From Candidatus Zixiibacteriota bacterium (lineage in GTDB: Bacteria; Electryoneota; B3-LCP), in NCBI GenBank assembly GCA_003599535.1, contig QZKQ01000056.1, positions 6,124-70,123 on the forward strand: a stretch of DNA of 64,000 bases, written 5' to 3'. Numbering within the stretch: the stretch's first letter is position 1; each line of letters starts with the position of its first letter. Shown one piece after another: positions 8,189-60,533 of the stretch. The notes below the pieces were generated by a model. That model was not told the DNA's origin. It saw nothing but the letters and a program-made list of their open reading frames with translations, and made no database searches. The position numbers and the translations under genes are program-made.

Positions 8189-8203
8189 CCAGGAGAAAGA
8201 AAC

Positions 8204-36659: not shown

Positions 36660-36661
36660 CC

Positions 36662-42279: not shown

Positions 42280-42520
42280 CAGATCGTAGGGGCGATGCAT
42301 CTGCCCGGAAGAGGCCTCTGACCATGACCGCACCACGATTCTTTCCGAGGGCAACATGGTTCAACTCATTGTGCAGAGGCTTCGCCCTGGAACGATATGG
42401 CAGCCCATCCCCACGCAGGGCGAAGCATTTGCGCACCTTGTCCCGTGATGCAGGTCTTCCCAGAAATCGGTGACCCGGTCCAGCCATAAAGGGCGCATCC
42501 CGGCAAATGCATCGCCCCCA
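42280..42520. repeat. interspersed structured repeat element, copy B (inverted relative to copy A)
   Basis: gtaggggcgatgcatctgcccggaagaggcc (42286-42316) is the exact reverse complement of 12308-12338. Units cagaggcttcgccctg, gggcgaagcatttgcgca and ggcaaatgcatcgcccc follow in the same order as in A. Confidence 0.7.
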
Positions 42521-42731
42521 CACCACCGTTCATTCGTAATTCTAACAGCGAGGGAATCGCCGCCAGGAATCGCTACTCTAACGGGGTGATCTGTAGCAAT
42601 CAGGCTGAGACACTGCCTTTTCCAAACCGACCGGGCCTCATGGCCCCGCTTCAATCCTGGCGGCAACGCCGTAATCCCTTCAATCCATGATTCTGACAAT
42701 ACGCCTCGGCGAATAAATCACCACGACGACC

Positions 42732-44009: not shown

Positions 44010-44024
44010 TAACGGGCTCCCAAT

Positions 44025-46235: not shown

Positions 46236-48212
46236 TTACTTGAGTAAAACCACCTTCTGCACCTGCGTAAAGTCGCCCGCCTCCAGCCTCACGAAATACG
46301 CCCCCGCCGCCAGCCCCGAGGCGTCAAACGTCAGCTCGTGATTTCCCGCCTCCCGCCAGCCGTCCACCAGCGTTCTGACTTCGCGGCCGGCGGTGTCGTA
46401 GACTTTCAGTCGGATGTGGCCGGCAGCCGGGAGCGTGAAGCCCAGAGCCGTCAGCGGATTAAAAGGGTTGGGCGAGGGCGGCAGCAGGCGGCACTCCTGC
46501 GGCAGCGGCGCGCCGAAGGCCGTGGCGGTGGGGGATTGCCAGTTGAGGAGGGTGCCTGAGGAATACTTGATGGTAACGTAGTCTTCATTTGTCCCCATCC
46601 CGTTACTGCTTCCTGTCACATAAATATTACCGGCTATATCGACATGAAGTCCACCCAATCCGTGATCGACAGCGTTGGCAGGTCCATTGTAACCCGCCAC
46701 CCACATCTGGACTCCGTTAAGGTTGTACTTGATTGTGGTAATATCGCCGTAACTGGATCCCATGACTATTACGTTGCCGCCATCGTCCAAAGCGAGCTTA
46801 TAGCCATAGTCATCAATTGCTCCTGGCCCACTGTAGTATGCCACCCACTGCTCCACGCCATAAGGATCGTACTTAATGGTGGCACAATCGTCGTTATAAA
46901 CAAAAATCTGAGTAAACCCGGTAATATATACATTACCAGCCCCGTCCACAGCCAAATCAAAAGCTTGATCAACCGCATCACCAAGACCATTAAATATCGC
47001 AATCCACTGTTGAATGCCGGCAGAGTCATATTTAATCGTAACATAATCCCAACTTGTCAAGCTTCCATAGCTGGTTCCAGTCACATAAATATTGTCCTCA
47101 GCATCCAATACTAAACTGCGAGCGCAATCTTCATAATTCCCTGATCCGTTATGCCGTGCCACCCATATCTGGTCACCTGACGAATTGTATTTAATGGTAG
47201 CGCAATCATCCGATGTTCCGACTCCATTGCTTTCCCCTGTGACATAAATATCGCCGTCACTGCCTGAGGCTAAACTGTAGGCACGATCGTTGTTAGATGC
47301 AGGGCCATCGTATCTTGCGGCCCATTGCTGGTTTCCCGTAGAATCATACTTGACAGTAGTATAATCTTCGTCACCGCCGATTCCACAACTATACCCAGTC
47401 ACGTATACATTGCCGTCATCATCAATGATAATAGCCACGGCAATATCATGTGAATTTCCAGGCCCATTGTAACGCGCAAGCCACTGACGGACCCCAGAAG
47501 AGTCGTATTTTATTGTGGCATAATCATAGTTTGATCCATTCCCGTAACTTCCACCTGTCACATAGACATTCCCCTGTTCGTCACATGCTAAATCATAGGC
47601 TTCGTCGTCATCATTGCCTGGCCCATTATATTGCGCAATCCACTGCTGGATTCCTGAAGAACTATATTTGATGGTCATATAATCATAGGATGATCCGTTT
47701 CCAGTACAGTAGCCTGTCACGAAGAGATTATCTGAATCATCCGCAACAATATTAGTGGACCAATCTTCGTAGTTTCCCATTCCGTTAAACCGCGCCGTCC
47801 ATTCCTGAATGACTCCTCCCGTCAGCATCTGCTTCTGGAACTGCAGCGTGTCCCCCGCCCAGACGGCGCCGGGGTGCAGCCCCACGTAGGCGCGCAGGGT
47901 GTAGTAGCCCACCGGCGACCCCTGCGTCAGCGGCACACTGCGTTCCCAAGTCATGGTTTCCCCCGCCTGGAAGGTCTGCGTCACCGGCCCAGGCGAGGGC
48001 CCGGCGCTGCCGCTGGGCCGGGAGCTCGTGCCCCAGATATCGGCGCTGATGGTCGGCCCCAGGTTGGTGACGGACAGGCGGTAGGAAAACGTGCCGCCGC
48101 TGTCGGGCAGGACTAGCGGCGTGAGTGGGGTCAGCTCGACGGTGAAGGGTTGGTTCCAACCCGCTGACGGCAGGAGCAGGAGAACCAGGGCGATAAGGGC
48201 GAGGCTTCGCAT
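46236..48212 (-). CDS. secreted SBBP beta-propeller-repeat protein with T9SS C-terminal sorting domain
   Basis: Signal peptide and more than 8 SBBP-like repeats (YNGPGN..D.A.....D..GNVYVTG.S.G.G...DY.TIKYDS.G...W). C-terminus ...AGAYFVRLEAGDFTQVQKVVLLK. Confidence 0.8.
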   Translation of the reverse strand: MRSLALIALVLLLLPSAGWNQPFTVELTPLTPLVLPDSGGTFSYRLSVTNLGPTISADIWGTSSRPSGSAGPSPGPVTQTFQAGETMTWERSVPLTQGSPVGYYTLRAYVGLHPGAVWAGDTLQFQKQMLTGGVIQEWTARFNGMGNYEDWSTNIVADDSDNLFVTGYCTGNGSSYDYMTIKYSSSGIQQWIAQYNGPGNDDDEAYDLACDEQGNVYVTGGSYGNGSNYDYATIKYDSSGVRQWLARYNGPGNSHDIAVAIIIDDDGNVYVTGYSCGIGGDEDYTTVKYDSTGNQQWAARYDGPASNNDRAYSLASGSDGDIYVTGESNGVGTSDDCATIKYNSSGDQIWVARHNGSGNYEDCARSLVLDAEDNIYVTGTSYGSLTSWDYVTIKYDSAGIQQWIAIFNGLGDAVDQAFDLAVDGAGNVYITGFTQIFVYNDDCATIKYDPYGVEQWVAYYSGPGAIDDYGYKLALDDGGNVIVMGSSYGDITTIKYNLNGVQMWVAGYNGPANAVDHGLGGLHVDIAGNIYVTGSSNGMGTNEDYVTIKYSSGTLLNWQSPTATAFGAPLPQECRLLPPSPNPFNPLTALGFTLPAAGHIRLKVYDTAGREVRTLVDGWREAGNHELTFDASGLAAGAYFVRLEAGDFTQVQKVVLLK

Positions 48213-48517: not shown

Positions 48518-48572
48518 AGGAACAACAAAGCCCCATATACGGGGCTCCCTCCAGCCCGCCGCCGGCGGGCTG
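48518..48572 (-). terminator. minus-strand terminator(s) at the end of the radical-SAM operon
   Basis: Minus-strand reading gives hairpin gcccgccggcggcgggc, then hairpin agccccgtatatggggct followed by TTGTTGTT. Confidence 0.5.
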
Positions 48573-48602: not shown

Positions 48603-49157
48603 CTACCCGAGTACCACCCTCAGGTCTTCCTCCGTATTCAGGTTGAACAGCCCCTCCCCGCCTTTCCTCGCCCCCACCGCCTCCCACGCCACTCCCTCCC
48701 AGACCGGGGCGAAGGAATAGTGGATTCCCGCCAGGCGCTCTTCCCACAGGGGCAGGGTGTCGCGGCGGTAGAGCGCCGCCAGCGGTTCGGGGCGGCCGTC
48801 GCGGGTCAGGCAGGCGAGAGGCCGGTGCGATCCGGCGGCCCGCAGCAGCGCCTCCAGGTCGCGCCCGGAGAGTCGCGGCAGGTCCACCGCCAGCACCAGC
48901 GCCCAGTCCGTGGGGCAGACGCGCAGCGCCGCCACCAGCCCGCCCAAGGGGCCGCAGCCGAGGCGCGCGTCGGGCAGCCCACCGGGCAGGTCGTCCCCCA
49001 CCAGCGCCGGGGCCCGGCCCAGCGCCGCTTCGATTCTCCTGGCTGTGGCAGCCAGCAGGGTCCGCCCGTCCAGCCGCAGGAAACGCTTGTCCCGGCCCAG
49101 GCGGGTGGACCGGCCGCCGGCCAGCACGTACCCGGTGACGTGGTGCCGGGGGTTCAC
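48603..49157 (-). CDS. mobA: MobA-like nucleotidyltransferase (molybdenum cofactor guanylyltransferase)
   Basis: GYVLAGGRSTRLGRDKRFLRLDGRTLL, the MobA LAGG.S.RMG.DK motif. GTG start overlaps the upstream stop (GTGA). The longer ORF 5-prime extension overlaps the neighbouring gene. Confidence 0.6.
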   Translation of the reverse strand: MNPRHHVTGYVLAGGRSTRLGRDKRFLRLDGRTLLAATARRIEAALGRAPALVGDDLPGGLPDARLGCGPLGGLVAALRVCPTDWALVLAVDLPRLSGRDLEALLRAAGSHRPLACLTRDGRPEPLAALYRRDTLPLWEERLAGIHYSFAPVWEGVAWEAVGARKGGEGLFNLNTEEDLRVVLG

Positions 49158-49984
49158 GGCTGCTCCCGGGGCGGATCCAGGTGGGCGAAATCCAGCGCCC
49201 GGACGTGGTGGACGGCCTTGCGGGCGAAGTTGGCCGCCGACACCGCGGTGTAGCCCAGCAGCAGTATCAGCCGCAGGGGGAGGTCGTGGCCGGTCATGGT
49301 GAGGCGGGGCAGCAGAATTTCGGCGGCGAAGAACAGGGTCAGCAGGTTCATGGCCGGGTGCACCAGCAGGGTCAGGACGAAGTCCGCCCGGCCGCGCTGT
49401 TGGGTGGTGACGAAGGCCGCGCCCAGGGCGGTGCGGAATTCCGGCCGGCGCAGCACGCCGGGGGCTTTGTCCAGCCGTTCCAGCAGGGTTTCCACCAGGC
49501 AGAAGCGGGGGTAAATGGTCCAGGCCGCCAGGAAGGCGCCGCACAGCAGCGGCACGGCGCTGCCGGTCAGGCGGAAGGCGCCCCAGCCCCAGAAGAAGTA
49601 CATGGCCGTCTTGGGCAGGTGGTCGAAGAGCTTGTCCAGGTATTCCCCGGCCAGGTTGCCGCCCTGGCCGCGGCGGCGGGCCACGTCGCCGTCGGCGGCG
49701 TCCAGGATGAAGTGGACCTGCAGCAGCAGCATGCCCAGCAGCCCCACCCGGGGGTCGGTCGAGACCAGCAGCAGCGCCCCGGGCAACCCCACAAGCAGCT
49801 TCAGCAGGGAGACGCCGTTGCCGGAAAAGCCCAGCGCGGCCAGCAGCGGCGCGACTTTCCGGGCCAGCGGCCGGGCCACCTTGCGGCGGTAAAGCGAGGT
49901 GTCGCAGTAGGGCGGAGCCGGATCCCAGGGCAGATCGGAAGGGCGGGGACGCTCTTCAGCCGCGTTTGCGGATGACGGTGACAC
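49154..49984 (-). CDS. CDP-alcohol phosphatidyltransferase family protein
   Basis: DAADGDVARRRGQGGNLAGEYLDKLFD, the D-G-x2-A-R-x8-G-x3-D-x3-D signature, and multiple TM segments. Confidence 0.75.
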   Translation of the reverse strand: MSPSSANAAEERPRPSDLPWDPAPPYCDTSLYRRKVARPLARKVAPLLAALGFSGNGVSLLKLLVGLPGALLLVSTDPRVGLLGMLLLQVHFILDAADGDVARRRGQGGNLAGEYLDKLFDHLPKTAMYFFWGWGAFRLTGSAVPLLCGAFLAAWTIYPRFCLVETLLERLDKAPGVLRRPEFRTALGAAFVTTQQRGRADFVLTLLVHPAMNLLTLFFAAEILLPRLTMTGHDLPLRLILLLGYTAVSAANFARKAVHHVRALDFAHLDPPREQP

Positions 49985-50786
49985 GGAATTGTCCGGGGAT
50001 GAAGTTCAGCGCGTTCAGCGCGCAGGAGGCCAGGTAATAGACGGTCAGGAATACTTTTCGGGCGCGGCTTTCGGGGGCGAAGTAATAGTGCAGGTATTCG
50101 AACTGGCCGGCGAAGCCGCGGGAATATTCGCGCACCGCACCGTCCCGGCGCAGTTGCGGGGGCAGGCAGTCTCGCAGCGAAGCCACGCCGTCCTTGGGGC
50201 CGAAAGGCCAGCGTCCGGCGCGCTGGGCGCGGCGCATGGCCAAGGGATGAATGCCGGAGCGGGTGTCGTTGTTGACGCTGATCACGCGGCCGGATTCCCG
50301 GGTCACCCGCAGCATTTCGGCCAGGGCGCGGGCGCGCATTTCCGGGCCGAAGTGATCCAGCACCCCCACGTTGAAGGCGGCGTCGAAGATTCCCGGCTTG
50401 AAGGGCAGGTGCAGGATGGAGGCCTGCACCGCGGCCGCAGGCAGCCCCAGGTCCCGGGCCCGCCGCTGGTCGAATTCCAGGGCGGCGCGGGAGACATCCA
50501 GCAGGACGACGCGGTTGCCGGCGCGAGCCAGCCGCAGGGAATGTTCCGCCGTGCCGCAGCCCGCCTCCAGGAGGCGTTGTCCCCGGGGGTCGCCGGTTTC
50601 GCGCCGCACCAGGCGCCAGGCCAGTTCCACGCCGCCGCCGCGCCGCAGGAAGCGCTTCAGCCGCGCTTTCAGGCTGAACAGGTCCGGTGCGGGTCCGGCG
50701 GCGACACGTTCCCAGTGCCGCGACCAGTTGGTCCGGGCTTGCCGGATGCGGGCGTCTTCATCCGCTGGGGGAGTGGGGTGATTCAC
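49956..50786 (-). CDS. class I SAM-dependent methyltransferase
   Basis: LLEAGCGTAEHSLRLARAGNRVVLLDVS...FDAAFNVGVLDHF. GTG start; 29-nt overlap with the upstream gene. Confidence 0.7.
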   Translation of the reverse strand: MNHPTPPADEDARIRQARTNWSRHWERVAAGPAPDLFSLKARLKRFLRRGGGVELAWRLVRRETGDPRGQRLLEAGCGTAEHSLRLARAGNRVVLLDVSRAALEFDQRRARDLGLPAAAVQASILHLPFKPGIFDAAFNVGVLDHFGPEMRARALAEMLRVTRESGRVISVNNDTRSGIHPLAMRRAQRAGRWPFGPKDGVASLRDCLPPQLRRDGAVREYSRGFAGQFEYLHYYFAPESRARKVFLTVYYLASCALNALNFIPGQFRVTVIRKRG

Positions 50787-51483
50787 CGGGGATTCCGAAC
50801 ATTTTCCGGGCCCGCCGCAGATCCGCGGGCGTGTCTATTTCCATCCAGGGGTAGCCGGTGACGTCCAGGGCGGTGACCGGGCAGTCCCCCCGGCGGATGA
50901 CCTCCACCACCGCCTCTTCGAAGTAGCGGCTGGGGCGCCCGGAAGCCAGGATGCCGGCGGCCGCCCCTCGCAGGGCGGCCAGCCCCGCGGGAGAAAACTT
51001 CATCAGGGGGAGGGATTCCCCCGCTGCCTCGGACACGGGCAGGGTTTTGCTCAGGTCCGTGACCCGGCCGCCCGCCTGGGCCATCTTCATCGCTTCGGCG
51101 TCCAGGGAAGAGCAGTCCAGGGGGAGGATGACGTCGCCGGAGGCTTCCATCAGGCGGTCGAACAGACCCTCGCTCACGACCAGGTCGGCGTGGGCCAGGA
51201 TCAAGGGGCCGGCCAGGAGCCCGGCGCCGGCGTGGAAGGATACCAGGTTGTCGGAAGCGGCGTAGCCAGGGTTGAACACCGGGTGCGCCCCCAGGGCCTG
51301 TGCCGCCGGAGCCACCCGGTCGCGTTGGTGCCCCGTGACCACCACGATCTCCCCGGCGCCGCGCCGGCGGAGTTGTTCCACCAGGCGAGCCAGCAGGGTC
51401 CGCCCGCCGACCTCCAGCAGCGGTTTGGGAGTATTCCCGCCCAGGCGTAATCCTTGACCGGCAGCCAGGATCAGGGCCTGCAT
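50758..51483 (-). CDS. sugar/alcohol-phosphate nucleotidyltransferase (NTP_transferase domain)
   Basis: MQALILAAGQGLRLGGNTPKPLLEVGGRTLL Gly-rich NTP-binding loop. ATG overlaps the upstream stop (ATGA). Confidence 0.65.
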   Translation of the reverse strand: MQALILAAGQGLRLGGNTPKPLLEVGGRTLLARLVEQLRRRGAGEIVVVTGHQRDRVAPAAQALGAHPVFNPGYAASDNLVSFHAGAGLLAGPLILAHADLVVSEGLFDRLMEASGDVILPLDCSSLDAEAMKMAQAGGRVTDLSKTLPVSEAAGESLPLMKFSPAGLAALRGAAAGILASGRPSRYFEEAVVEVIRRGDCPVTALDVTGYPWMEIDTPADLRRARKMFGIPGESPHSPSG

Positions 51484-52226
51484 CACACCTTCCGGCAGAT
51501 AAACAGGGACATGGTGGTGGTGGGCAGATCGTCGCCCCAGATGCCCTTCAGCCGGCGCAGCTCGGCGCGGGCGGCCATATGAGGCAGGCTCGCGAACAGC
51601 GCCAGGTCCAGCGGCCGCCAGGGGTGCTCGATGCTCTCCACGTGCAGCCCCGCGGCGGTGAACATGACGGTCCACTCCGGCTCGGAGGGATGGTATTCCC
51701 ACCCTTCCGCGACCGAATGCCGCTTCGCTTGCAGGGAATACGCCAGCCGGGCGCGTTCGTCGTCGGGGATGGTGGCCCAGTCTTCCACGCTGATCAGCCG
51801 ACCGCCGGGTTTGATGATGCGGGATATTTCCGCCACTGTGCGGGGGATAAGCTGCCGGGGCAGGTGATGGATGGTATCCATCTCCAGCACCCCGTCGAAG
51901 CTGGCGGTCTTAAGCGGCAGCCATTCGGCCGCCGCCTGGATCAGGGGCAGATCCCGTCCCAGGCGCGCCCGGGACAGGTGCAGGAAATTACGGGCCAGAT
52001 CCAGGCCGTAGTAGCGCATCGCCGGCCACCGGCGTTTGGCTGCGGCTCCCACGATGCCGGGCCCAATGCCCACTTCCAGCCAGCGTTCATGCTGGTGCTG
52101 CCCCAACAATTCCACCACGCGCGCATCCGCCGCGCTCCAGCCCCGCTTGGTATAATAACTATCCGCCTGGGCTTCCCAATGTTCGCGCATCCAGGCTGTG
52201 GCCTCACGTTCAGTCACCCGTCTCAT
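51483..52226 (-). CDS. class I SAM-dependent methyltransferase (Methyltransf_11-like)
   Basis: WLEVGIGPGIVGAA...YYGLDLARNF...FDGVLEMDTIHHL...IKPGGRLI. Start at 52226 (17-nt overlap) or 52190. Confidence 0.6.
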   Translation of the reverse strand: MRRVTEREATAWMREHWEAQADSYYTKRGWSAADARVVELLGQHQHERWLEVGIGPGIVGAAAKRRWPAMRYYGLDLARNFLHLSRARLGRDLPLIQAAAEWLPLKTASFDGVLEMDTIHHLPRQLIPRTVAEISRIIKPGGRLISVEDWATIPDDERARLAYSLQAKRHSVAEGWEYHPSEPEWTVMFTAAGLHVESIEHPWRPLDLALFASLPHMAARAELRRLKGIWGDDLPTTTMSLFICRKV

Positions 52227-53442
52227 GTCCCACCGAAAAATACGTTCTGGAACCTCGCATGAGCAGGCTTCCGCAATATAATTGTAGGTGCTCGGGATCC
52301 GTAGCGTTTTCGCCCAGAGAATCCCATAGTTCCCAGATAATATATTCGAGCAGCCGCGTTGAGAAATAGCAGTTGCGCCGGTCGAAGGCCCCGACTCCAT
52401 AGATAGACTGTCCGTCGAAAATGCACCCGCCGCCGCAGATGCCAATGGCGGCGCAATCTCGGCATTCCACGTTCAGGAGGGGGATATAGCGGCTCCAATC
52501 CCCTCCTCCGGCCTTCAGTCCGGCTTCGTTGACGCAGGTTGTACGTATGTTTCCGGGAAATACAACAATTTTTTCTCCTTGCGCGGCGCAGTCCCGCAGG
52601 CGGAATTTCCGGTGGACCAGGGGCGCCAGCCGGCGGTTGATCTGGTCCACGAACAGTCCGTGCTCCCGGGCAAAGGGGAAGATGCGGATCAGTGCTTCGG
52701 TGTACTCGGGGAGACGATCCCAGACCTGGCCGTGGTGGTGGTGCGGCAGGTTCAGGCCCAGGCTGGCGGGGCGGAATTCCCGCACGATGGCTTCGACCAG
52801 TTCGGGCAGGGTGGCGATGTTGTGATCACCCACCACGGCGGAGATGCCGTAGTCCAGGCCCAGGTCGCACGCCTCCTTCAGGGCCCGGGCGACCTTGGTG
52901 TAGGATCCCCCCGCCCCGATCCGCGCGGTGTTGTGGGCGAACAGGTCGCCATCCAGGGAAAACAGCACCCCCACCCCGTGATCCCGATAAAAGCGCAGTC
53001 GCGACCGTTCCGTGCGCGTCCCGTTGGTGAAGATGATGATCTTGCCGCGGACCGTCTCCACCAGGTGGTCCACCGCCTCGCGGTAGAGCTCCGGCTCGCC
53101 GCCGGTGATCAGCAGCAGGCCGCCCGGGCCGAGGTCCCGGTTGAATTCCCGGGCCAGCGCGGCGATCTCCTCCCGGCTCATGGCCGGACGGGTCAGCGGC
53201 GGGGCGTTGGCGTCGAAGGAGCAGTAGCTGCAGCGCAGGTTGCACTGCGAGGTGATGACCGCCTGCATGGTGCGGACCCGGGGCGGCGTCAGGGGGATCT
53301 CGATGACGCGCTCCGGTTCCGGCGGGATGGCGCTTCCCGCGGGGAAGTATTCCCGGGTCAGGCCGTAGGCACCCCAGCGGCAGACGTCCTGGCCGCGGCG
53401 GAACAGGTGGTATTTTTCCGGCAGGCGGAGGATTTCGTTCAC
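52210..53442 (-). CDS. radical SAM enzyme with SPASM/twitch auxiliary cluster domain
   Basis: CNLRCSYCSF (CxxxCxxC) and C-terminal CRDCAAIGICGGGC. Confidence 0.8.
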   Translation of the reverse strand: MNEILRLPEKYHLFRRGQDVCRWGAYGLTREYFPAGSAIPPEPERVIEIPLTPPRVRTMQAVITSQCNLRCSYCSFDANAPPLTRPAMSREEIAALAREFNRDLGPGGLLLITGGEPELYREAVDHLVETVRGKIIIFTNGTRTERSRLRFYRDHGVGVLFSLDGDLFAHNTARIGAGGSYTKVARALKEACDLGLDYGISAVVGDHNIATLPELVEAIVREFRPASLGLNLPHHHHGQVWDRLPEYTEALIRIFPFAREHGLFVDQINRRLAPLVHRKFRLRDCAAQGEKIVVFPGNIRTTCVNEAGLKAGGGDWSRYIPLLNVECRDCAAIGICGGGCIFDGQSIYGVGAFDRRNCYFSTRLLEYIIWELWDSLGENATDPEHLQLYCGSLLMRGSRTYFSVGHETGD

Positions 53443-54920
53443 GGCAGTTTTCCTTGCCAGTAGCTGCCCGCGGTAAAGGGCTGGTTGCGGGACGACAGCG
53501 ACACGTTGTCAATCAGGGCCTGGCGGTCGCCCTCGCCGGGGGCAAACCAGGGGCGGGATTCCCCGTCCCGCTGGTCGAACAGGCGCCAGATCATCCAGTT
53601 CAGAAACTCGCGTTCAAAGCGGCAGCGGTCGGGGTCTACCCCGTCCAGGCGCCCGGAGGCCTTGTAGGCGTCGTAGCGGCAGGCGCCCCCGCACACGGTC
53701 ATCGCGGGGCACAAACGGCAGTGGGGCATCTCCGGGGAGGAGAGCCCGGCCCACAGGCGGTGGTCGGGATGGTCCGGCGCCGGGAACGCCTCCCGCGGGT
53801 AAAACCAGCGCCGATCCGGGTAGCAGGAATCGCAGAATCCCATGACTCCGCCGGGAGCCAGCACCAGCCGCTCGCCGGGCGAAGAGCAGTCCTTCAGCAG
53901 GGGATTGCGGAACACGAAGGGACGCAACCGGCGGAAGGGCTGCTCGGCGTAGACGCCGTAGCGGCGGGTCACCTCCCAGCCTTCGATCAGGGCGGGGAAA
54001 GCCTGTTCGGTGGAGAGCTGGTAGGGATTGGGCTGGTCTCCGCGGCGGTGCAGGAAGGCGTTCAGACCGATGTCGTGGGGGTGGAAGCGGTCCACCAGGC
54101 ATTCCACCTGGCGGGCGAAGTCGTCCACGTTGTGCCGCCCCATGGTCACCGACAGCCCCACGCGGCAGCCGCGGGCGGTCAGCAGGTTCCAGGCCCGCTC
54201 GGAGGCGGCGAAAGCCCCTTCGCCCGGCGCGCGGCGCACCGCGTCGTTGACCGGGGGCAGGCCGTCCAGGGAGAGGATGACGAAGACGTCGTGGCGGGCC
54301 AGAACCTCCGCCTGGTACTCCGTCATCCCCAGCCCGGAGGTGGTGAAGCAGAACCGCACCTCGTCCTGGCGGAAGAAGGTCCGGGGGCGGGCCCGGCGCA
54401 GGACCTCCTCCACCAGGGGGAAGGCCAGCAGCGGCTCGCCGCCGTAGACCAGGAGGTCCAGCGGCTTGGTGGTATCGGTGCAGAGCCGGGCGCAGGTTTC
54501 CAGCCCCGCGACGATCTCCTCCCGGGTCATGGTGCGCGCTTCGCCCCGCCCGGTGCGCTGATGGCAGTAGCGGCAACTCAAGGCGCAGTCGGTGGTGGGC
54601 AGCAGGCAAATGAAGCGGAAGGTCCCCCGGCGGGCGGCGGCGGCCAGGGCCTGGTGGTCGGCCTGGTCGGTCCCGGCGCCCCGTGGCAGCAGGATTTTCT
54701 CTTCCCGCAGTCGGGCTGCCAGGTCCGGCGGCAGGCTTTCCCGCACGCCGCCCCGGCGCAGGTAGACCGCGGCCAGGTTCAGGGGGCGGTACAGGGCGAT
54801 CCAGTCGCCGCGCCGGGAAGCCCACAGGTCGCCGGACCACTCCCATTCCGGCGGCGCCGGGGGCAGGAGAGGGGATTCCGGCTGATCCGGGCCGGTTACG
54901 CGGAAAAAATCATCGTGCAT
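53439..54920 (-). CDS. radical SAM enzyme with SPASM domain and about 100-aa N-terminal extension
   Basis: CALSCRYCHQ and C-terminal CDSCYPD...HCRLCPAMTVCGGAC. The N-terminal extension precedes the rSAM core. 25-nt overlap with the upstream gene. Confidence 0.8.
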   Translation of the reverse strand: MHDDFFRVTGPDQPESPLLPPAPPEWEWSGDLWASRRGDWIALYRPLNLAAVYLRRGGVRESLPPDLAARLREEKILLPRGAGTDQADHQALAAAARRGTFRFICLLPTTDCALSCRYCHQRTGRGEARTMTREEIVAGLETCARLCTDTTKPLDLLVYGGEPLLAFPLVEEVLRRARPRTFFRQDEVRFCFTTSGLGMTEYQAEVLARHDVFVILSLDGLPPVNDAVRRAPGEGAFAASERAWNLLTARGCRVGLSVTMGRHNVDDFARQVECLVDRFHPHDIGLNAFLHRRGDQPNPYQLSTEQAFPALIEGWEVTRRYGVYAEQPFRRLRPFVFRNPLLKDCSSPGERLVLAPGGVMGFCDSCYPDRRWFYPREAFPAPDHPDHRLWAGLSSPEMPHCRLCPAMTVCGGACRYDAYKASGRLDGVDPDRCRFEREFLNWMIWRLFDQRDGESRPWFAPGEGDRQALIDNVSLSSRNQPFTAGSYWQGKLP

Positions 54921-55921
54921 AGGTAATTCTCATGCACCAGCCCCTTGCTTTCCTTCCAGCGGGCGGGAATGACCGGGTGGTCGCCGCGGACTTTGAAGCA
55001 GTATTCGTCCGGTTCGGCCGGATGGCCCAGCAGCCGCCGCGAGGCGCAGCCGCCGGCGCACACTTCAAGGGCGGAACAATCCCGGCAGACCGCGGGAACG
55101 GGCAATTCCATACTCTGCACCATTTTCCGGCGCTGGGTTTCGAAGCTGGAGAGCAGGTCGTCCAGCGTGGTGGTGCTGTGGTTCAGGTAAACGCAGGGTA
55201 CCACCTTGCCGTCGGCGTGCACCCGGAAGCTGTGCCTGCCGCAGGGGTTGCCGTGGTTGGCGCGCGGGTTGCCGATAGCGGCGTTGACCACCGGTTCGCT
55301 GCACGCGCTGAAGGCCGCCGCGCCAGCCATATCCGCGATGGCCTGCCAGAACTGCTCGTAGGTCGGCCGGTGATCGCGGCTGTGCACCGGCTTGTACACG
55401 TTGACCCGAAGGTTCAGGTCCAGTTTGCACGCCAATTCGGCCAGCTTCCCCATGGTGGCGGCGTTCTCCCGCATCAGGCAGCCCACCAGGCTGGCCTCGA
55501 CTCCCAGGTCGCGGCAGCGGGCCACCCCTTCCATGACGTAGTCGAACGACCCCTGCCCCCGCCACCGATCGTTGGTCTCGGCGTCGGGGTAGTCCAGGGA
55601 GAAGTCAATGTCGTGGAAGCGGCGCAGGTCCGCGTCGGGCAACTGGTGGACCGTCAATCCGTTGGTGGTCACCGCCAGGTCAATGCTCCGGTCCGACAGC
55701 TCTCGCACCAGCTCGGTGAACCGGGGATAGAGGATGCTTTCGCCGGTGCCGAAATTGATGCTTTCGACCGGCAGGCGGTTGACCAGGGACAGGACCTGCG
55801 CGTAATCCAGGTCATGGTACCCGTTGTGGGATCGGGAATAGCAGTGCGGGCAGGCGGCATTGCAGCGGTCGGTCAGCCCAATGCCGAAGGTGAAGCCGGG
55901 GGAGGTCCGATTTTCCCTCAT
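54896..55921 (-). CDS. radical SAM enzyme with SPASM/twitch domain
   Basis: CNAACPHCYS and C-terminal CRDCSALEVCAGGC. Confidence 0.8.
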   Translation of the reverse strand: MRENRTSPGFTFGIGLTDRCNAACPHCYSRSHNGYHDLDYAQVLSLVNRLPVESINFGTGESILYPRFTELVRELSDRSIDLAVTTNGLTVHQLPDADLRRFHDIDFSLDYPDAETNDRWRGQGSFDYVMEGVARCRDLGVEASLVGCLMRENAATMGKLAELACKLDLNLRVNVYKPVHSRDHRPTYEQFWQAIADMAGAAAFSACSEPVVNAAIGNPRANHGNPCGRHSFRVHADGKVVPCVYLNHSTTTLDDLLSSFETQRRKMVQSMELPVPAVCRDCSALEVCAGGCASRRLLGHPAEPDEYCFKVRGDHPVIPARWKESKGLVHENYLCTMIFSA

Positions 55922-56712
55922 CGTTCGATTCGTCCTATCAGAGCTTCTCGGGCAATGCGGGCGTAATATTCGGGTTGGTCCTCAATGTCGAACAGATCCA
56001 GGGTGAAGAAACCGGAATAGTGGATGGCCTGGAAGGCGGCGAGCAGCGCGGCGAAGTCCAGGTCCCCTTCGCCGGGAATCCGGTGGCGGTGTTCCCGGCC
56101 GCGGATGTCCTCGATATGGGTGTGAACGATCCGTTCGCCCCAGCGGACGATGTCCCGGCCGAGGTCGGGTTCGGTGATATGGGCGTGCCCTACGTCGAGG
56201 TTGACTTTCAGCCGGGGTGATCCCACCACCTGGATCAGCATTTCCATTTCCCGGGTGCCGGCGATCACCGTGCCCGGCTCCGGTTCCACGGCGAAGTCCA
56301 CCCCGAATTCCTCGGCGTAGCGGCACATCCGGGTGGTGAAGCGGCACATAGCCGCGAAGGCCTCTTCCCCCTCGCCTGCCAGCGATCCGGAGATGAAGGT
56401 TCGCACGCCCAGGTCGCGGGCCAGCTCCAGGCCGGCCAGGCCCTTGCGCTGCTTCTCCTGCCAGCCGGCGCGCTTGCCGTGGAAACTGACCGCGGCGGCC
56501 TGCAGGCCGCTCTCCTCCAGGATCCGGCGCAGGGTGGGAAAATCGCAGCGTCCGGGTGCATCGGGATCCAGGTCGCTGTGCTCCAGGCACAGTTCGACCC
56601 CGTCGTAGCCCAGCTCCCGCAGAGTCTGGAGCGCTTCGGGCAGACTCCGCCGCCGGAAACCGGACAGACGAAAACCGATTTTTCCCGCCAGAAACCAGTA
56701 GAGATCCTGCAT
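55918..56712 (-). CDS. xylose isomerase-like TIM-barrel sugar phosphate isomerase/epimerase
   Basis: About 264 aa with the AP-endo2/xylose isomerase-like pattern (GYDGVEL...HGK...VEPEPGT...DVGHAHI...HIEDIRG). Confidence 0.7.
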   Translation of the reverse strand: MQDLYWFLAGKIGFRLSGFRRRSLPEALQTLRELGYDGVELCLEHSDLDPDAPGRCDFPTLRRILEESGLQAAAVSFHGKRAGWQEKQRKGLAGLELARDLGVRTFISGSLAGEGEEAFAAMCRFTTRMCRYAEEFGVDFAVEPEPGTVIAGTREMEMLIQVVGSPRLKVNLDVGHAHITEPDLGRDIVRWGERIVHTHIEDIRGREHRHRIPGEGDLDFAALLAAFQAIHYSGFFTLDLFDIEDQPEYYARIAREALIGRIER

Positions 56713-56735
56713 GCCGTCCGCCGGTTACATCAGGT

Positions 56736-58934
56736 TCATTCCGGGGCCGCCGCCTCGAGGTTGCACACGAAGCAGCGGAAGGGGTAGCCGAACCCTCCCG
56801 GCCCCTGCAATCCCGAGGGCAGCAGCTCGTTGACGTTGCTGCGCCGCACCCCGAAGAGTTCCGGCGCGGCGGCCTCGCGTTCCGGGAACCACCAGCCGCT
56901 GTCGCAGTGCACGATCCCCGGCGCGAACCGGTCGCTGACGCGAGCCCGCATCAGGCAACTGCCGAAGGGGCTGTACACCCGCACGGGGTCCCCGTCGCCC
57001 ACGCCGGCTTGCGCGGCCGTGTCGGGGTGGAGATCGGCCAGGGGTTCCGGCTGCCGGCGGCGCAGCGCGGGGAGGTTGCGGTGCTCCGAGCCGAAGTAGT
57101 AGGGCCGCCGCGAACCGCTAGTCAATATATATGGGTAATTTTGGACGCCGTATTGGTGACGGTAATCACCCATGTAATCATGGTAATGCGGGGTGGAAGC
57201 CAGCCCCATGGCCCGCAGCGCCGGCGAGTCCAGCTCGACCTTGGCCGACGGGGTGGCGAACCCCGGAGCGCCGTCGCCGCGCAGCCGGCCGCTCTCGTGT
57301 TTTCCGTATTCCAGCGGCGGCACCTGCGATCCCCGCTCGCGCAGTTCGGCGAAGGTGAGCCCCGAAGGCTTCAGCCGCTCTTCGATCCACTCCCCGGCAT
57401 CTTTCCAGGGGAAGCGGTGCGGCGCGACCCGGCGGCCCACGGCCAGGACGATCTCGGCGTCGCTGCGGCACTCCCCCGGCGGGTCCACCGCCCGGTTGAT
57501 GGTCCCCAACTGGGCGAAGTGAACGTACAGACTGTCCTTTTCCGGGTACATGGCCGCGGGCAGGATCACGTCCGCCAGGGCCACCGCTGCGGGGTTCAGG
57601 AACACGTCCACCATGACCATGAAATCCAGCGTGCCGAACAGTCGCAGCACCCGCCCGGGGTCGGCGAAGGAGGAGGGCACGATCCCCGTCCCCTGCAGCC
57701 AGGCCGCCTTGATAGGGTAGGGCTGCCCCGTCTCCATCTGGTCCAGCAGCACGTCGGGCTGGGCGTAGGGGTTGCCGGTCTCCAGCAGGGGGTAGCGTCC
57801 CGCCCCGAGCCGCGGGGATTGGACCTCGGGGAAGGCGGCCGCCTCGTCCCCGCGGCGCAGCACCCCGAAGGGCGATCCCTGCAGCACGTTGCCGCCGGGC
57901 GTTTCCAGGCTGCCGGTCAGGGCGACCAGGGCCAGCAGCCCGTGGATGGTCCCCAGGCAGCCCGGGTTCATGTCCACGGACACTCCCCACACCAGGGGGA
58001 AAGGCCGCGCCCACCCCAGGAAGCGCGCCGCTTCGGTCAGGGCGGCGGCGTCCACCCCGGTCAGTTCGGCGGTGCGCTCCGGGGTGTAGGGTTCGGCCGC
58101 CGTCCGCAGCGCTTCCAGGCCCAGGATCCAGTCGCGGCAGAAGGCCTCGTCCACCAGCCCGGCGTGGAACAGCTCGCGGATCATTCCCAAAGCCAGGGCG
58201 CCGTCGGAACCGGGACGCAACCGCAGCCAGTGCCGCGCCCGGGCCGCCGCGCCGGTCTTCTGCGGATCCACCACCACCAGCTCGGCGCCGTCCCGCAGGC
58301 GGTCGGTCACCCAGCCTCCGAACAGGCCGTCGGGGTTGGATACCACCGGGTTGGAACCCCACACCAGGAGGGTGCGCGGCGTCCGGTACACGCCTGGCGG
58401 GGTGGCGAATTCGCCCAGGTCGGGCAGCGGCAGGCCGCCCAGAACGGCCGTGGACAGGGCCACCCGGGGGCGATAGCAGGCGTTGCCGTTGCCGGGCCCC
58501 AGGCCGAAATAGTTGGGGCTGCCGAAACTCCAGGCCAGGCGGGGCAGCCAGGCGCCCACGTCGCGGGCCGTGCCCTTGCAGAAGATGACGGATTCCGGCC
58601 CAAAGCGCTGCCGGATCTCCAGGAGGCGCCGGGCCACCAGGTCCGCGGCTTCGTCGAAGCCGGCCCGCCGCCAGCGATTCTCACCCCGCGCCCCCACCCG
58701 GATCAGCGGATGGGTCAGCCGCTGGGGGTGGTACATGGCCTGGGCGACGTTGCGCCCCCGGGGGCACATCCGCCCGTCATTGTGACGGTTGTCCCGGTCG
58801 CCCTCCACGTCCACCAGCCGGCCTCCCCGGACCCGCAGCAGGACGCCGCAGCCGCCGTGGCATCCCGGCGGCGACCAGCAGACCGAGCGGATGATCTCGG
58901 CGTCGCCTTCCCGGCGGCGGTACCCGGAGCTCAT
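56736..58934 (-). CDS. molybdopterin (bis-MGD) oxidoreductase of the DMSO-reductase superfamily, cytoplasmic
   Basis: N-terminal 4Fe-4S motif CWSPPGCHGGCGV...C and a molybdopterin dinucleotide-binding C-terminal domain. The real start MSSGYRRREG at 58934 overlaps the upstream stop (ATGA). The 1029-aa ORF-track version has a non-coding extension. Confidence 0.75.
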   Translation of the reverse strand: MSSGYRRREGDAEIIRSVCWSPPGCHGGCGVLLRVRGGRLVDVEGDRDNRHNDGRMCPRGRNVAQAMYHPQRLTHPLIRVGARGENRWRRAGFDEAADLVARRLLEIRQRFGPESVIFCKGTARDVGAWLPRLAWSFGSPNYFGLGPGNGNACYRPRVALSTAVLGGLPLPDLGEFATPPGVYRTPRTLLVWGSNPVVSNPDGLFGGWVTDRLRDGAELVVVDPQKTGAAARARHWLRLRPGSDGALALGMIRELFHAGLVDEAFCRDWILGLEALRTAAEPYTPERTAELTGVDAAALTEAARFLGWARPFPLVWGVSVDMNPGCLGTIHGLLALVALTGSLETPGGNVLQGSPFGVLRRGDEAAAFPEVQSPRLGAGRYPLLETGNPYAQPDVLLDQMETGQPYPIKAAWLQGTGIVPSSFADPGRVLRLFGTLDFMVMVDVFLNPAAVALADVILPAAMYPEKDSLYVHFAQLGTINRAVDPPGECRSDAEIVLAVGRRVAPHRFPWKDAGEWIEERLKPSGLTFAELRERGSQVPPLEYGKHESGRLRGDGAPGFATPSAKVELDSPALRAMGLASTPHYHDYMGDYRHQYGVQNYPYILTSGSRRPYYFGSEHRNLPALRRRQPEPLADLHPDTAAQAGVGDGDPVRVYSPFGSCLMRARVSDRFAPGIVHCDSGWWFPEREAAAPELFGVRRSNVNELLPSGLQGPGGFGYPFRCFVCNLEAAAPE

Positions 58935-60268
58935 GGTTCGCTCCCGGCCAGCACGTTTTTCCGGCCGAAGCGGAGGCCGTAGTGAAAGTGCAGCGCCAGG
59001 ACCGTGTTCAGCAGGGGCGAACGGCTCCGGCGGCAGAACAGGTCCTTCAGCCCGGCGGCCGAGCGGGGCAGCAGCGCCTCGTCGCTGACGGCCTCGCCGA
59101 AACGCAGCCGGGCCAGTGGCGTGCCCGGCTCCGGGCGGATGTAGCTGAACTTGTAGCGGATCAGGCGCCGGCCCAGGCGCCTGCGAGCCCGCAGCAGGAA
59201 CCGCGCCGCGGCCAGGAAGTCCTTCCAGCCCGATCCCGGCACCGCGGCGAAGAAGTTGTAGGAGACCCGCGCCTGCCCGTCCTGCGCCAGCAGGCCCAGG
59301 GAACGGTGCAGCGATTCCACCGTGGTCGCCTTGCCCAGGGTTTTCAGGGCCGAGGCCGTGGCAGCGTCGGGGGACAGGTAGAACTCGTCGCAGCCGGACT
59401 GCCGGGCCAGGGCGATGTATTCGGCGGTCAGGTAGCGATCCTGCTGGTAGGCCCCCCAGCGCACCTTCACGCCGCGATCCAGCAGGGCGCGGCAGACGGC
59501 TTGGGCGTGCCCGGCGGGGTGGTTGAACACCGGGTCGCAGAAGAACACCCGCTGCACACCGTAACGTTGCGCCAGGGTTTCCACTTCCGCCGCCACCCGT
59601 GCGGGGTCCTTCAGGCGCAGTCCGGACCCGCTGAGCTGGGGATAGGTGCAGTAGGCGCAGGCCAGGGCGCAGCCGCGCTTGGTTTCCACCCCCACGGCGG
59701 CGCGGTCGGCGTAGCGGGCGTAGGGCGCCAGGTCCACCAGCTCCCAGGCGGGGGGCGGAATGCGGTCGAAGTCCAGCCTCTCTCCGGGGCCGGAAAAGGT
59801 CACCGTCCCCCGGTCGCGGTACCACAGGCCCGGAATCGCGGCGGGGCCGCCGCCCCGGCAGAGGAATTCCGGGAAGGAGACGTCCGCCTCCAGGAAGAAC
59901 CCGGCGGCCAGTTCCGGAACCCGCTCCAGCACCAGCCGGGGAAAGAGCGAGAAGCCGCTGCCGCCCACGACCAGGACGGCGCGCGGCGCCAGCTTGCGCA
60001 GTTCCTGGACGAAGCGCTGAAAGTGTTCGAAGTAAAAGAAGGGATCGCTGTACTTGGTGGTGTCAATATTGCGCAGGGACAGGCCGATGAGGTCCGGCTG
60101 AAAGTCCTGAATGACGGAGCGAGTATCCTCCAGCGGGCGGCGTGCCACGTTGGGGTCGAACAGGCGGAGGGTGTGGTCGGAAAGGTGCGCCGCCAGGCTG
60201 GCCAGCCCCAGGGGCGCCACCGGAGGTTCCCGGCGGCCCAGGTACGACTGCAAGAGCAGGAGGCGCAT
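58931..60268 (-). CDS. B12-binding-domain radical SAM enzyme (class B rSAM)
   Basis: N-terminal cobalamin-binding Rossmann-like domain and CALACAYCTY radical-SAM cluster. First gene of the operon. Confidence 0.8.
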   Translation of the reverse strand: MRLLLLQSYLGRREPPVAPLGLASLAAHLSDHTLRLFDPNVARRPLEDTRSVIQDFQPDLIGLSLRNIDTTKYSDPFFYFEHFQRFVQELRKLAPRAVLVVGGSGFSLFPRLVLERVPELAAGFFLEADVSFPEFLCRGGGPAAIPGLWYRDRGTVTFSGPGERLDFDRIPPPAWELVDLAPYARYADRAAVGVETKRGCALACAYCTYPQLSGSGLRLKDPARVAAEVETLAQRYGVQRVFFCDPVFNHPAGHAQAVCRALLDRGVKVRWGAYQQDRYLTAEYIALARQSGCDEFYLSPDAATASALKTLGKATTVESLHRSLGLLAQDGQARVSYNFFAAVPGSGWKDFLAAARFLLRARRRLGRRLIRYKFSYIRPEPGTPLARLRFGEAVSDEALLPRSAAGLKDLFCRRSRSPLLNTVLALHFHYGLRFGRKNVLAGSEP

Positions 60269-60426
60269 AATGGCGTTTTTCCGGGATGACTGCGGCCGAA
60301 GATCTCAGCGGTGCTAATAGTAATATAGCATGGATGAAACGGAAAGTCAAGTAAATAGTTGAGCAATGGGAAGGTTTTTTAACCCCGAAAGGATCGAATG
60401 AAAAGCCGTCCGCGAAATCCGGAATG

Positions 60427-60533
60427 GTAGGGGCGATGCCTTTGCCCTCCCGGGGCCACTTCCGTCAGGAGGCGGATCTGCATCCCCGAAAGGCGGCATT
60501 CCCCGGCATGTGGGACAGATGCTTCGCCCCTGC
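60427..60533. repeat. interspersed structured repeat element, short copy C (2 inverted units)
   Basis: aggggcgatgcctttgccc (60429) and gggacagatgcttcgcccct (60512), related to the units of copies A and B. It lies in the promoter region of the rSAM operon. Confidence 0.6.

Follow-up and report, generated by a model that had tools for sequence, protein, structure and literature searches.

A conserved radical-SAM-rich gene cluster of uncultured sediment bacteria and a possible CDP-alcohol pathway for a tailored polyol phosphate

Results

A ten-gene series conserved across uncultured bacteria

The DNA analyzed here is a 64,000-nt stretch of contig QZKQ01000056.1 from a metagenome-assembled genome (MAG) of a Candidatus Zixiibacteriota bacterium; this stretch is referred to as the window, and all positions are window coordinates unless a locus is named. 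Positions 48603-60268 hold 11 consecutive minus-strand genes, numbered g1 to g11 from the 5′ end, that span 11.7 kb and encode four radical S-adenosylmethionine (SAM) enzymes, a molybdenum/tungsten (Mo/W) oxidoreductase, a TIM barrel, two methyltransferases, a nucleotidyltransferase, a CDP-alcohol phosphotransferase and a MobA-like protein. Our data indicate that g1 to g10 are, very probably, a dedicated and conserved biosynthetic operon for a specialized product. The interpretation that we favor for this product, held at somewhat less than even confidence, is an anaerobic route in which a polyol or cyclitol phosphate is tailored, activated with CTP and passed to an acceptor anchored in the membrane.

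The conservation of the series carries the first of these statements. The genes g1 to g10 occur in one gene order in at least 11 independent contigs; the main-type copies are those of the window and of loci L001/L009, L002, L005, L006, L007, L008, L010, L015, L016, L024 and L026. Because the same order recurs in many unrelated contigs, the series is beyond what chance would produce. Six of the loci came from a pattern search with one genome per species, and tblastn mapping gave the order g1 to g10 in every one of the six. A metagenome search returned 80 loci, many of them generic SPASM enzymes at 24-30% identity since the pattern is unspecific, and the 14 that were analyzed mostly show at least 34% identity. 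In candidate division LCP-89 and in a contig of the European Nucleotide Archive, the series is likewise headed by g1 orthologs (47-60% identity). The hosts, several of them uncultured bacteria of sediments, include Zixibacteria, LCP-89, Calditrichaeota and unclassified or other bacteria of the Fibrobacteres-Chlorobi-Bacteroidetes (FCB) type. Proteins with a type IX secretion system (T9SS) sorting tail adjoin several of the copies, which likewise points to the FCB group.

Losses from the main type are few: g3 is missing in L006, L024 and L026, and g7 in L010. In a diverged form (L037/L040 and L043) every one of the ten functions is present, at 32-46% identity, and the B12 gene has moved, so that the order becomes Mo enzyme, TIM barrel, g4, g5, g6, methyltransferase, B12 radical-SAM enzyme, nucleotidyltransferase, methyltransferase and CDP-alcohol transferase. 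Synteny across related genomes, by which an earlier reading of this DNA from its sequence (the first-pass annotation) had proposed that the unit be judged, is thus strongly conserved for g1 to g10. The same annotation had counted the MobA gene as part of the unit; g11 is indeed present here, but it lies outside the conserved core and was otherwise found only in L043.

Intergenic inserts of 350-530 nt were observed at junctions that otherwise overlap, at 16985-17426 of L002 and at 5114-5549, 7708-8239 and 11509-11863 of L008. The L002 insert translates to strings such as 'RCAQNDK' and 'SAAKNP', which we take to be characteristic of a widespread repeat element. Insertions between g5 and g6 are evidently tolerated by the operon.

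Gene layout and flanking signals

The genes were delimited from a six-frame open reading frame (ORF) listing and by inspection of start codons, and the independent public gene calls for the same contig give the same genes, with the start of g7 as the sole difference. The junctions are tight. ATGA overlaps join g1 to g2 (4 nt) and g3 to g4, GTGA overlaps join g5 to g6 and g10 to g11, and a TGATG arrangement leaves 1 nt shared by g7 and g8. Longer overlaps of 25 nt (g4/g5) and of 29 nt (g8/g9 and again g9/g10) were found, and the sole gap of the operon is the 23 nt between g2 and g3. The g6/g7 junction is a 17-nt overlap if g7 starts at the ATG at 52226, and a 19-nt gap with the Joint Genome Institute (JGI) start at 52190. 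These overlaps, together with the lack of internal terminators, suggest that g1 to g11 are co-transcribed.

A promoter-like site on the minus strand (60322..60350; TTGACT-17 nt-TATATT with a TG extension) matches the consensus at 10/12 positions and lies ~54 nt upstream of the g1 ATG. At the other end, back-to-back terminator-like hairpins with T-runs at 48527-48548 (minus strand) and 48552-48572 (plus strand) close the operon and the converging gene space. The tightly overlapping 11-gene operon of the first-pass annotation, with its terminator pair and an upstream promoter region holding a structured repeat, is therefore borne out by the ORF listing, the start codons, the public gene calls and the flanking signals. 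An Rfam scan of the whole window found no riboswitch, including the cobalamin type, and no other RNA family, so RNA elements give no clue to a ligand.

The structured repeat corresponds to the copy at 60427-60459, upstream of the operon, of an intergenic dispersed element of ~33 nt (GTAGGGGCGATGCATCTGCC...GAGGCCTC). Further direct copies lie at 12104-12136 and 42286-42318 and inverted ones at 12305-12340 and 42491-42526, so that at two sites the element forms inverted pairs ~200 nt apart. It could be a REP/MITE-like element (repetitive extragenic palindrome or miniature inverted-repeat transposable element).

The 25-nt overlap of g4 and g5 (54896-54920) is kept in L002, L005-L009, L037 and L043. 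Its bases are dual-coding, since they specify YLCTMIFSG at the C-terminus of g4 as well as MHDDF, the invariant N-terminus of g5, and this constraint is probably tied to translational coupling.

The radical-SAM enzymes

All eleven family assignments of the first-pass annotation hold by Pfam and NCBIfam, and no protein from g1 to g11 scores at the cut-off of a curated NCBIfam family. Since all scores fall under the cut-offs, none of the eleven is a member of a named equivalog family.

The g1 product (58931..60268, 445 aa) is a cobalamin-binding, class B radical-SAM enzyme with Pfam B12-binding and Radical_SAM domains, and is a probable C-methylase of an unactivated carbon. Its best NCBIfam matches are BzaD (TIGR04385; 257 bits, cut-off 450) and the lipid-type B12 radical-SAM family TIGR04072 (179 bits, cut-off 360), and its relatives in the PDB are TsrM, AprD4 and TokK. 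There are ~35 orthologs at 47-60% identity. Paralogs at ~40% identity occur in pairs beside genes for lipid-A-type acyltransferases (Lip_A_acyltrans).

The other three radical-SAM enzymes, g4, g5 and g6, share a CxxxCxxC motif and Cys-rich C-terminal clusters of the SPASM type, the Pfam SPASM match being borderline and confined to g4. The g4 protein (54896..55921, 341 aa) has no N-terminal extension; it carries Radical_SAM and SPASM matches in Pfam, the motif CNAACPHC and a Cys-rich C-terminus. Its best NCBIfam matches, MftC at 76 bits and GeoRSP at 75 bits, are both far under cut-off. The g6 protein (52210..53442, 410 aa; Pfam Radical_SAM) carries an SVGHET motif that is conserved at its C-terminus. 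For both g4 and g6, BlsE is the closest solved relative, and both have homologs in all variant clusters.

The g5 protein (53439..54920, 493 aa) is the most elaborate of the three. Its AlphaFold2 (AF2) model (pLDDT 90) has a ~100-aa N-terminal unit of 4 strands and 2 helices, followed by the radical-SAM and SPASM domains. The top Foldseek matches of this model are TigE and CteB, maturases of peptides that are made by ribosomes and modified after translation (RiPPs), with ~450-470 aligned columns, near full length, at 16-18% identity; the model also superposes on anSME. From this whole-model alignment to CteB and TigE, the N-terminal unit is a putative RiPP recognition element (RRE)-like domain. 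About 34 orthologs of g5 were found, after which identity falls abruptly to 28%, and g5 is missing from variant L017. Its MHDDF N-terminus and NQPFTAGSY tail were considered as a fused substrate, a reading that was set aside: the bases for this N-terminus also encode the conserved C-terminus of g4, and the model has short strands, at residues 6-7 and 486-487, that may pair.

In terms of abundance, the g6 family is rare, with 52 matches at E<=1e-8 in a 5.8-billion-protein collection and 97 representative clusters at E<=1e-30 among 1.84 billion; orthologs of g5 and g6 make up about 34-45 clusters among the 5.8 billion proteins. The best-scoring families for g4, g5 and g6 are peptide maturases (MftC, GeoRSP, FibroRumin, PapB and SCIFF), at 74-86 bits against cut-offs of 265-400. 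No family-level match to the lipid-modifying radical-SAM enzymes (Tes, Gms, Grs, Cds, HpnJ and the ladderane B12 type) was obtained; tetraether synthase Tes (7TOL) is not among the PDB sequence matches of g4, g5 and g6, nor among the top 50 Foldseek matches of g5. A radical-SAM pair in L018, at 26% identity and beside a Frankia_peptide precursor, was rejected as an ordinary RiPP cluster of a different family.

The first-pass annotation had held that the unit matches no nameable pathway and that assignment of its enzymes to housekeeping pathways or known cassettes would speak against it. The scores leave that position standing: the MoaA equivalog (cut-off 284 bits) gives 56 bits for g4 and 49 bits for g6, while MftC reaches 76 of 265 bits, PqqE 39 of 381 and BzaD 257 of 450.

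The Mo/W enzyme and the MobA-like protein

The g2 protein (56736..58934, 732 aa) is a Mo/W-bis-pyranopterin oxidoreductase of the acetylene-hydratase/Psr-Phs clade, with Pfam Molybdop_Fe4S4, Molybdopterin and Molydop_binding domains. Its relatives in the PDB are acetylene hydratase (2e7z, 5.9e-64) and PsrA (2vpw, 4.9e-56). No signal peptide and no hydrophobic N-terminal region were found in g2, and the enzyme is therefore placed in the cytoplasm. The segment GNAC153YRPR aligns with SLCTAPR of PsrA and sets Cys153 opposite the Mo ligand of PsrA, so that Cys153 is a likely metal ligand.

The N-terminal [4Fe-4S] motif of g2 is C-x5-C-x3-C-x27-C, an unusual spacing that includes C-x5-C-H-G-G-C. 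By motif register, the His presumably occupies the position of the catalytic Asp13 of acetylene hydratase, the HMMER alignment beginning only at g2 residue 55. Measured against the acetylene hydratase signature, a C-x2-C-D motif with its Asp and a Cys ligand, g2 lacks the Asp motif and keeps the Cys ligand. In fact, g2 and acetylene hydratase are alike in having the bis-pyranopterin fold, an N-terminal [4Fe-4S] motif, a Cys metal ligand, a cytoplasmic location and a single subunit. Unlike acetylene hydratase and PsrA, g2 has C-x5-C-x3-C in place of C-x2-C-x3-C and is encoded inside a biosynthetic operon, and unlike the Psr/Phs enzymes it has neither a PsrB/PsrC partner nor a twin-arginine (Tat) signal.

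The g11 protein (48603..49157, 184 aa) is a MobA-like molybdenum cofactor (Moco) guanylyltransferase. Its top matches are all MobA families, at 68-74 bits (E 1e-19 to 1e-21) against equivalog cut-offs of 152-164, and "MobA-like" is used for this reason. No such gene follows g10 in the gene calls of L001/L009 and L016, and none was found by tblastn in the other main-type loci that reach past g10. It is an accessory gene that probably serves g2. The possibility that g8 is itself a MobA/MocA-type Moco modifier for g2 was rejected: g8 homologs are fused or adjacent to the TIM barrel, and one occurs in L014, which has no Mo enzyme.

The TIM barrel, the methyltransferases and the CDP-alcohol pair

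The remaining genes supply the small-molecule chemistry of the cluster. The g3 protein (55918..56712, 264 aa) is a xylose-isomerase-like TIM barrel (Pfam AP_endonuc_2, 120 bits), a fold predicted to serve as a sugar or cyclitol isomerase, epimerase or dehydratase or as a phosphodiesterase. Its single best NCBIfam match is fructoselysine 3-epimerase; IolE, IolO and IolI are among the best, and CbiR matches weakly (32 bits). MJ1311 and ketose 3-epimerases are the best solved relatives, with IolE and IolI also matched. Two class-I SAM methyltransferases are encoded. One is g7 (51483..52226; Methyltransf_11/25; 247 aa, or 235 aa from 52190), with homologs in L013, L017, L022, L037 and L043. The other is g9 (49956..50786, 276 aa; Pfam/NCBIfam), whose aromatic and hydrophobic C-terminal segment, with a hydropathy maximum of 1.6 at residues 245-263, is kept in most orthologs.

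The g8 protein (50758..51483, 241 aa; Pfam NTP_transf_3) is a nucleotidyltransferase of the IPCT/LicC/PntC type and probably a cytidylyltransferase, judging by its relatives. The IPCT/DIPPS family is its best NCBIfam match (70 bits). In the PDB the phosphonate cytidylyltransferase PntC (6pd1) is the best match, followed by IPCT (2xme, E 3.6e-10) and LicC (1jyk). The g10 protein (49154..49984, 276 aa; Pfam CDP-OH_P_transf) is an integral-membrane, polytopic CDP-alcohol phosphotransferase with several hydrophobic helices. Its catalytic motif D-x2-DG-x2-AR-x(8-9)-G-x3-D-x3-D is intact (LDAADGEVARLRGEAGKLSGEYLDKLFDH) and conserved in 8 orthologs. Archaetidylinositol-phosphate (AIP) synthase, phosphatidylinositol-phosphate (PIP) synthase and DIPPS (23 bits) are its sole NCBIfam matches, and AF2299 is a solved relative. 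Matches of g8 and g7 to the DVU_1551 and DVU_1556 families were discarded as uninformative, being N-terminal only and under cut-off.

Variant clusters

Distant variants separate the invariant genes from the optional ones. In the variant of a Clostridiales MAG (L013), a carbamoyltransferase gene stands between g6-like and g5-like genes, a g7-like methyltransferase gene and a g4-like gene come next, and after these a GlyQ-like gene and a DegT aminotransferase gene. L014 has a g6-like gene with adjacent TIM and nucleotidyltransferase genes, and g5-like and g4-like genes on the opposite strand. Both L013 and L014 carry the SPASM radical-SAM pair or trio without any Mo enzyme. In L017, one strand encodes a PatA/LpxL-family acyltransferase, a B12 radical-SAM enzyme, a diverged CDP-alcohol transferase and a MatE-like protein that has 9 or more hydrophobic segments, and the other strand a g4-like enzyme, a methyltransferase, a g2-like Mo enzyme (48% identity), a 124-aa ferredoxin, a g6-like enzyme and a TIM-NTP_transf_3 fusion. 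This last protein (581 aa, 10911-12656 of L017) joins an AP_endonuc_2 TIM barrel to NTP_transf_3 by a Gly/Pro-rich linker, and because both are fused in one protein, g3 and g8 would be expected to act on the same or on consecutive intermediates. L020 and L022 are of the L017 type, with a PlsC-type acyltransferase near the L020 cluster, and in L037 a 987-aa Wzy_C protein is encoded directly upstream.

The kernel of the system is the SPASM pair g4 and g6, to which g5 is usually added. Its recurrent partners are the Mo enzyme, the B12 radical-SAM enzyme, a methyltransferase and a CDP-alcohol transferase; genes of lipid or envelope type accompany it occasionally.

Directly upstream of the L013 cluster, at 7869-10011, lie a nucleoside-phosphorylase-like ORF and an amidohydrolase gene. 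This pair may salvage 5′-deoxyadenosine or methylthioadenosine (MTA) for the radical-SAM enzymes.

Other features of the window

A haem biosynthesis set lies on the plus strand at ~32553-45400, comprising HemC and HemE by Pfam and HemN-like, ferrochelatase, HemY-like amine oxidase, HemA, HemB and HemL by the public calls. These genes were considered as partners of the operon and judged unrelated, as they are on the opposite strand, beyond a two-component system and a T9SS protein, and do not stand beside other copies of the cluster. At 46236-48212 (minus strand), in a stretch of lower GC content (0.53), is the gene of a secreted SBBP beta-propeller protein with a T9SS sorting tail; its DNA holds a 159-nt periodic repeat in six copies of 60-70% identity, which reflects the propeller blades. 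An ORF of 999 aa at 13484-16483 (plus strand), with a SAM-methyltransferase domain and a C-terminal TIR domain, has a GC content of 0.48 against ~0.63 in its flanks and looks like a horizontally acquired defense-type gene. A putative redox protein of the C_GCAxxG_C_C family is encoded at 1764-2609 (plus strand). This family is also part of the Desulfovibrio DVU_1551-1557 set, to which the weak g8 and g7 family matches belong, and the overlap is probably coincidental.

Discussion

A proposed pathway

The pathway that we favor can be written as a series of steps, of which we infer the substrate, the order, the specificity for CTP and the acceptor, as well as co-transcription of the genes. A sugar or polyol phosphate would be isomerized, epimerized or dehydrated by g3 and converted with CTP to a CDP-alcohol by g8, the nucleotide doubling as a handle for the radical enzymes as in fosfomycin biosynthesis. 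Hydrogen abstraction by g4, g6 and usually g5 could then lead to dehydrogenation, epimerization, decarboxylation or formation of a C-C bond or ring. A C-methyl group would be added by g1; the Cys-ligated Mo/W enzyme g2, matured here by the MobA-like g11, would perform an oxygen-free redox step, hydroxylation or hydration; and g7 and g9 would add O- or N-methyl groups. Finally, g10 would move the phospho-head group, with release of CMP, onto the acceptor, either a lipid of the diacylglycerol type or a lipid-linked glycan, to which it would be joined by a phosphodiester bond.

Several lines of evidence point to this pathway. Among them are the conserved order of the ten genes and the linkage of g3 to g8, which are fused in L017 and neighbors in L014. 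A Kennedy-type route is suggested because g8 is nearest to IPCT, PntC and LicC, and g10, with its motif intact, is nearest to the AIP, PIP and DIPP synthases. The pairing of an NTP-transferase with a CDP-alcohol transferase is that of a CDP-inositol Kennedy-like route proposed in Bacteroidetes (PMC9246714). Remodeling of sugar head groups to carbocycles by radical-SAM enzymes is described for calditol synthase (Cds) and HpnJ (PMC13459092), and Fom3 is a B12 radical-SAM enzyme that methylates a cytidylylated substrate (PMC8158854). BlsE is among the precedents for SPASM radical-SAM chemistry on sugars and cyclitols. All oxidative enzymes of the cluster are of the radical-SAM or Mo/W kind, with no oxygenase, and the pathway would thus be oxygen-independent, which fits the anaerobic hosts. 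A membrane acceptor is suggested by the acyltransferase, MatE-like and Wzy_C partners in the variant clusters, by the neighborhoods of the g1 paralogs and by the hydrophobic tail of g9; g10, being polytopic, is likewise membrane-associated. The first-pass annotation had likewise pointed to a CDP-activated polyol, cyclitol or lipid head group, and the matches of g8, of g10 and, with less specificity, of g3, together with these variant-cluster genes, lend support to it.

Other observations weigh against the proposal. No score of g1 to g11 reaches a curated cut-off. No myo-inositol-phosphate synthase (MIPS), kinase or phosphatase was found in the cluster, in 20 scanned ORFs below 36 kb or in the public calls for 36-64 kb, and no Inos-1-P_synth in the public gene listings of the clusters, with ~12 smaller ORFs upstream of 36 kb left unscanned and whole genomes outside the coverage. 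Lipid-type neighbors occur in the distant variants only, the main-type clusters having no consistent lipid gene nearby. The architecture of g5 is that of a peptide maturase. To our knowledge, a Mo/W enzyme has no precedent in head-group pathways. Lastly, DIPPS is a membrane protein whose substrates and product are soluble, and g10 is therefore no proof of a lipid acceptor.

A more specific form of the proposal, that the product represents a new class of membrane lipid or glycolipid head group, is possible, yet we hold it as doubtful. This would be a C- and O-methylated, radical-SAM-remodeled and possibly carbocyclic phospho-polyol, made via a CDP-alcohol with Mo/W tailoring and by a new small-molecule subfamily of SPASM enzymes.

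Alternative explanations

The behavior of DIPPS leads directly to the alternative that stands up best, a soluble phosphodiester solute or signal, in which g8 would make a CDP-polyol, g10 would couple it to a second soluble polyol phosphate and the other enzymes would tailor the polyol. The IPCT/DIPPS family is both the best NCBIfam match of g8 and one of the matches of g10, the PDB relatives include IPCT (2xme), IPCT/DIPPS (4mnd) and AF2299 (4o6m), and the main-type clusters are indeed without a lipid gene. However, g8 and g10 reach 70 and 23 bits against a cut-off of 580, and MIPS and phosphatase genes were not found in or near the clusters. The acyltransferases, the MatE-like many-helix protein and the Wzy_C protein that the variants add, like the g9 tail, are not accounted for by a soluble product, and the hosts are, by their sample sources only, sediment mesophiles rather than hyperthermophiles. 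We consider a soluble product unlikely.

A peptide-derived product, either a RiPP or a cofactor of the mycofactocin/PQQ kind, would have the SPASM trio cross-link or decarboxylate a ribosomal peptide encoded elsewhere, or a protein tail, with the remaining enzymes decorating it. The RRE-like, radical-SAM and SPASM architecture of the g5 model, with its near full-length superposition on TigE and CteB, is what such a pathway would be expected to have, as are the peptide maturases that head the NCBIfam matches of g4, g5 and g6 and a weak match of g9 to the mycofactocin methyltransferase MftM. Those top matches are biased, because most curated SPASM families are peptide maturases, and all of the scores lie 4-5 times under cut-off. 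A precursor is also wanting: no intergenic small ORF is common to at least 3 of 18 loci, in the clusters or within 1.5 kb of them, and in 11 loci the only small ORFs to be conserved are shadow frames of the enzyme genes. Peptidase, RRE chaperone and exporter genes are absent, g5 itself is absent from L017, and neither the TIM-nucleotidyltransferase fusion nor the CDP-alcohol transferase has a role in known RiPP logic. A peptide product is accordingly judged improbable.

The third alternative is a cobamide-like or nucleotide-loop cofactor, with g1 and a methyltransferase tailoring the lower-ligand base, g3 acting as a CbiR-like phosphodiesterase, g8 as CobY and g10 as an analog of CobS. Reaction of an NDP-activated alcohol with a second alcohol, releasing NMP, is the chemistry of CobS and CofD and counts in its favor. 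So do BzaD as the top family of g1 (257 bits), the weak matches of g3 to CbiR (32 bits), g8 to CobY (25 bits) and g9 to the corrinoid-protein-associated methyltransferase CpaM (44 bits), and the TIM-nucleotidyltransferase fusion, which fits consecutive CbiR and CobY steps. Every one of these matches is under cut-off, however, and weaker than the inositol- or sugar-type matches of the same proteins. No ThiC-like BzaA/B/F, CobT or corrin gene occurs in the 18 loci, the window has no cobalamin riboswitch by Rfam, and the known pathway offers no role for three SPASM enzymes and a Mo enzyme, so that such a cofactor appears very unlikely.

There is little to recommend an energy-metabolism or catabolic operon in which g2 is the working catalyst (a reductase or hydratase) and the other genes are maturation or accessory factors or chance-adjacent housekeeping genes: it would suit the Psr/Phs/acetylene-hydratase clade of g2, the small ferredoxin after the g2 homolog in L017, the co-located MobA here and in L043 and a weak match of g4 to a tungsten-enzyme radical-SAM maturase family (52 bits), but L013 and L014 carry the radical-SAM pair or trio without a Mo enzyme, the methyltransferases, cytidylyltransferase and CDP-alcohol transferase belong to biosynthesis, neither a membrane anchor nor electron-transfer subunits go with g2 in the main clusters, and chance adjacency is excluded because the ten-gene collinearity spans phyla.

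Significance and comparison with known systems

If the favored pathway is correct, the cluster would make a new phosphate-linked component of the membrane or envelope in sediment bacteria that are widespread but uncultured (Zixibacteria, Calditrichaeota, LCP-89 and their relatives), one that could be a new biomarker lipid. A rare radical-SAM/SPASM subfamily (~97 representative clusters among 1.84 billion) would then have small molecules and not peptides as its substrates, a biosynthetic tailoring role would fall to a Mo/W bis-pyranopterin enzyme, and the pathway would be a template for how anaerobes replace oxygenase chemistry in head-group tailoring. A peptide-derived product or a nucleotide-loop cofactor would still mean a new pathway. 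Uncharacterized radical-SAM clusters are not rare; this operon is directly testable by heterologous expression because it is compact (11.7 kb) and collinear.

The full-text literature was searched by combinations of enzyme class and host phylum, and the publications found there do not describe this cluster; a 2026 review of radical-SAM enzymes that modify lipids (PMC13459092) lists no counterpart. The closest parallel to the g8/g10 pair is the IPCT/DIPPS system and the CDP-inositol route of Bacteroidetes (PMC9246714), in which a soluble LicC/IPCT-type gene likewise stands beside a small polytopic CDP-alcohol phosphotransferase. The cluster differs in that no MIPS or HAD phosphatase was found with it, and the NF041135 cut-off of 580 bits is missed. 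Here the pair sits among four radical-SAM enzymes, a Mo/W enzyme, a TIM barrel and two methyltransferases, a setting found in no known system of the IPCT/DIPPS type. Fosfomycin biosynthesis (Fom1/Fom3; PMC8158854) similarly unites a cytidylyltransferase-type enzyme and a cobalamin radical-SAM methylase in one pathway. In contrast, the locus listings hold no PEP mutase or other phosphonate gene, g1 is nearer to BzaD and TIGR04072 than to the PhpK/Fom3 type, and the CDP-alcohol is here probably transferred and not hydrolyzed.

Cds and HpnJ (PMC13459092), in which radical-SAM enzymes act on sugar-derived lipid head groups without oxygen, are a conceptual precedent for the cluster. Those systems have one radical-SAM enzyme, no Mo enzyme and no CDP-alcohol route, unlike the cluster, and scores of 40 bits against the HpnJ cut-off of 578 and of 179 against 360 for TIGR04072 fall outside these lipid-modifying families. 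The systems of BzaD and of TIGR04072 (ladderane-type) differ from that of g1 in their neighbors, since bza and fatty-acid-synthesis genes are absent here, and both cut-offs are missed. The maturases CteB, TigE, PapB and MftC resemble g5 in domain order (RRE-like, radical-SAM, SPASM), but no precursor peptide, peptidase or transporter accompanies the cluster, where the partners are small-molecule enzymes. As to the mycofactocin and PQQ cassettes, the MftC and PqqE cut-offs are missed and the partners MftA/B and PqqA/D are in no locus listing. In summary, the kinds of enzyme are known, and what is new, as far as the searched literature goes, is the conserved collinear combination of four radical-SAM enzymes, a Mo/W enzyme, a TIM barrel, two methyltransferases and a CDP-alcohol pair.

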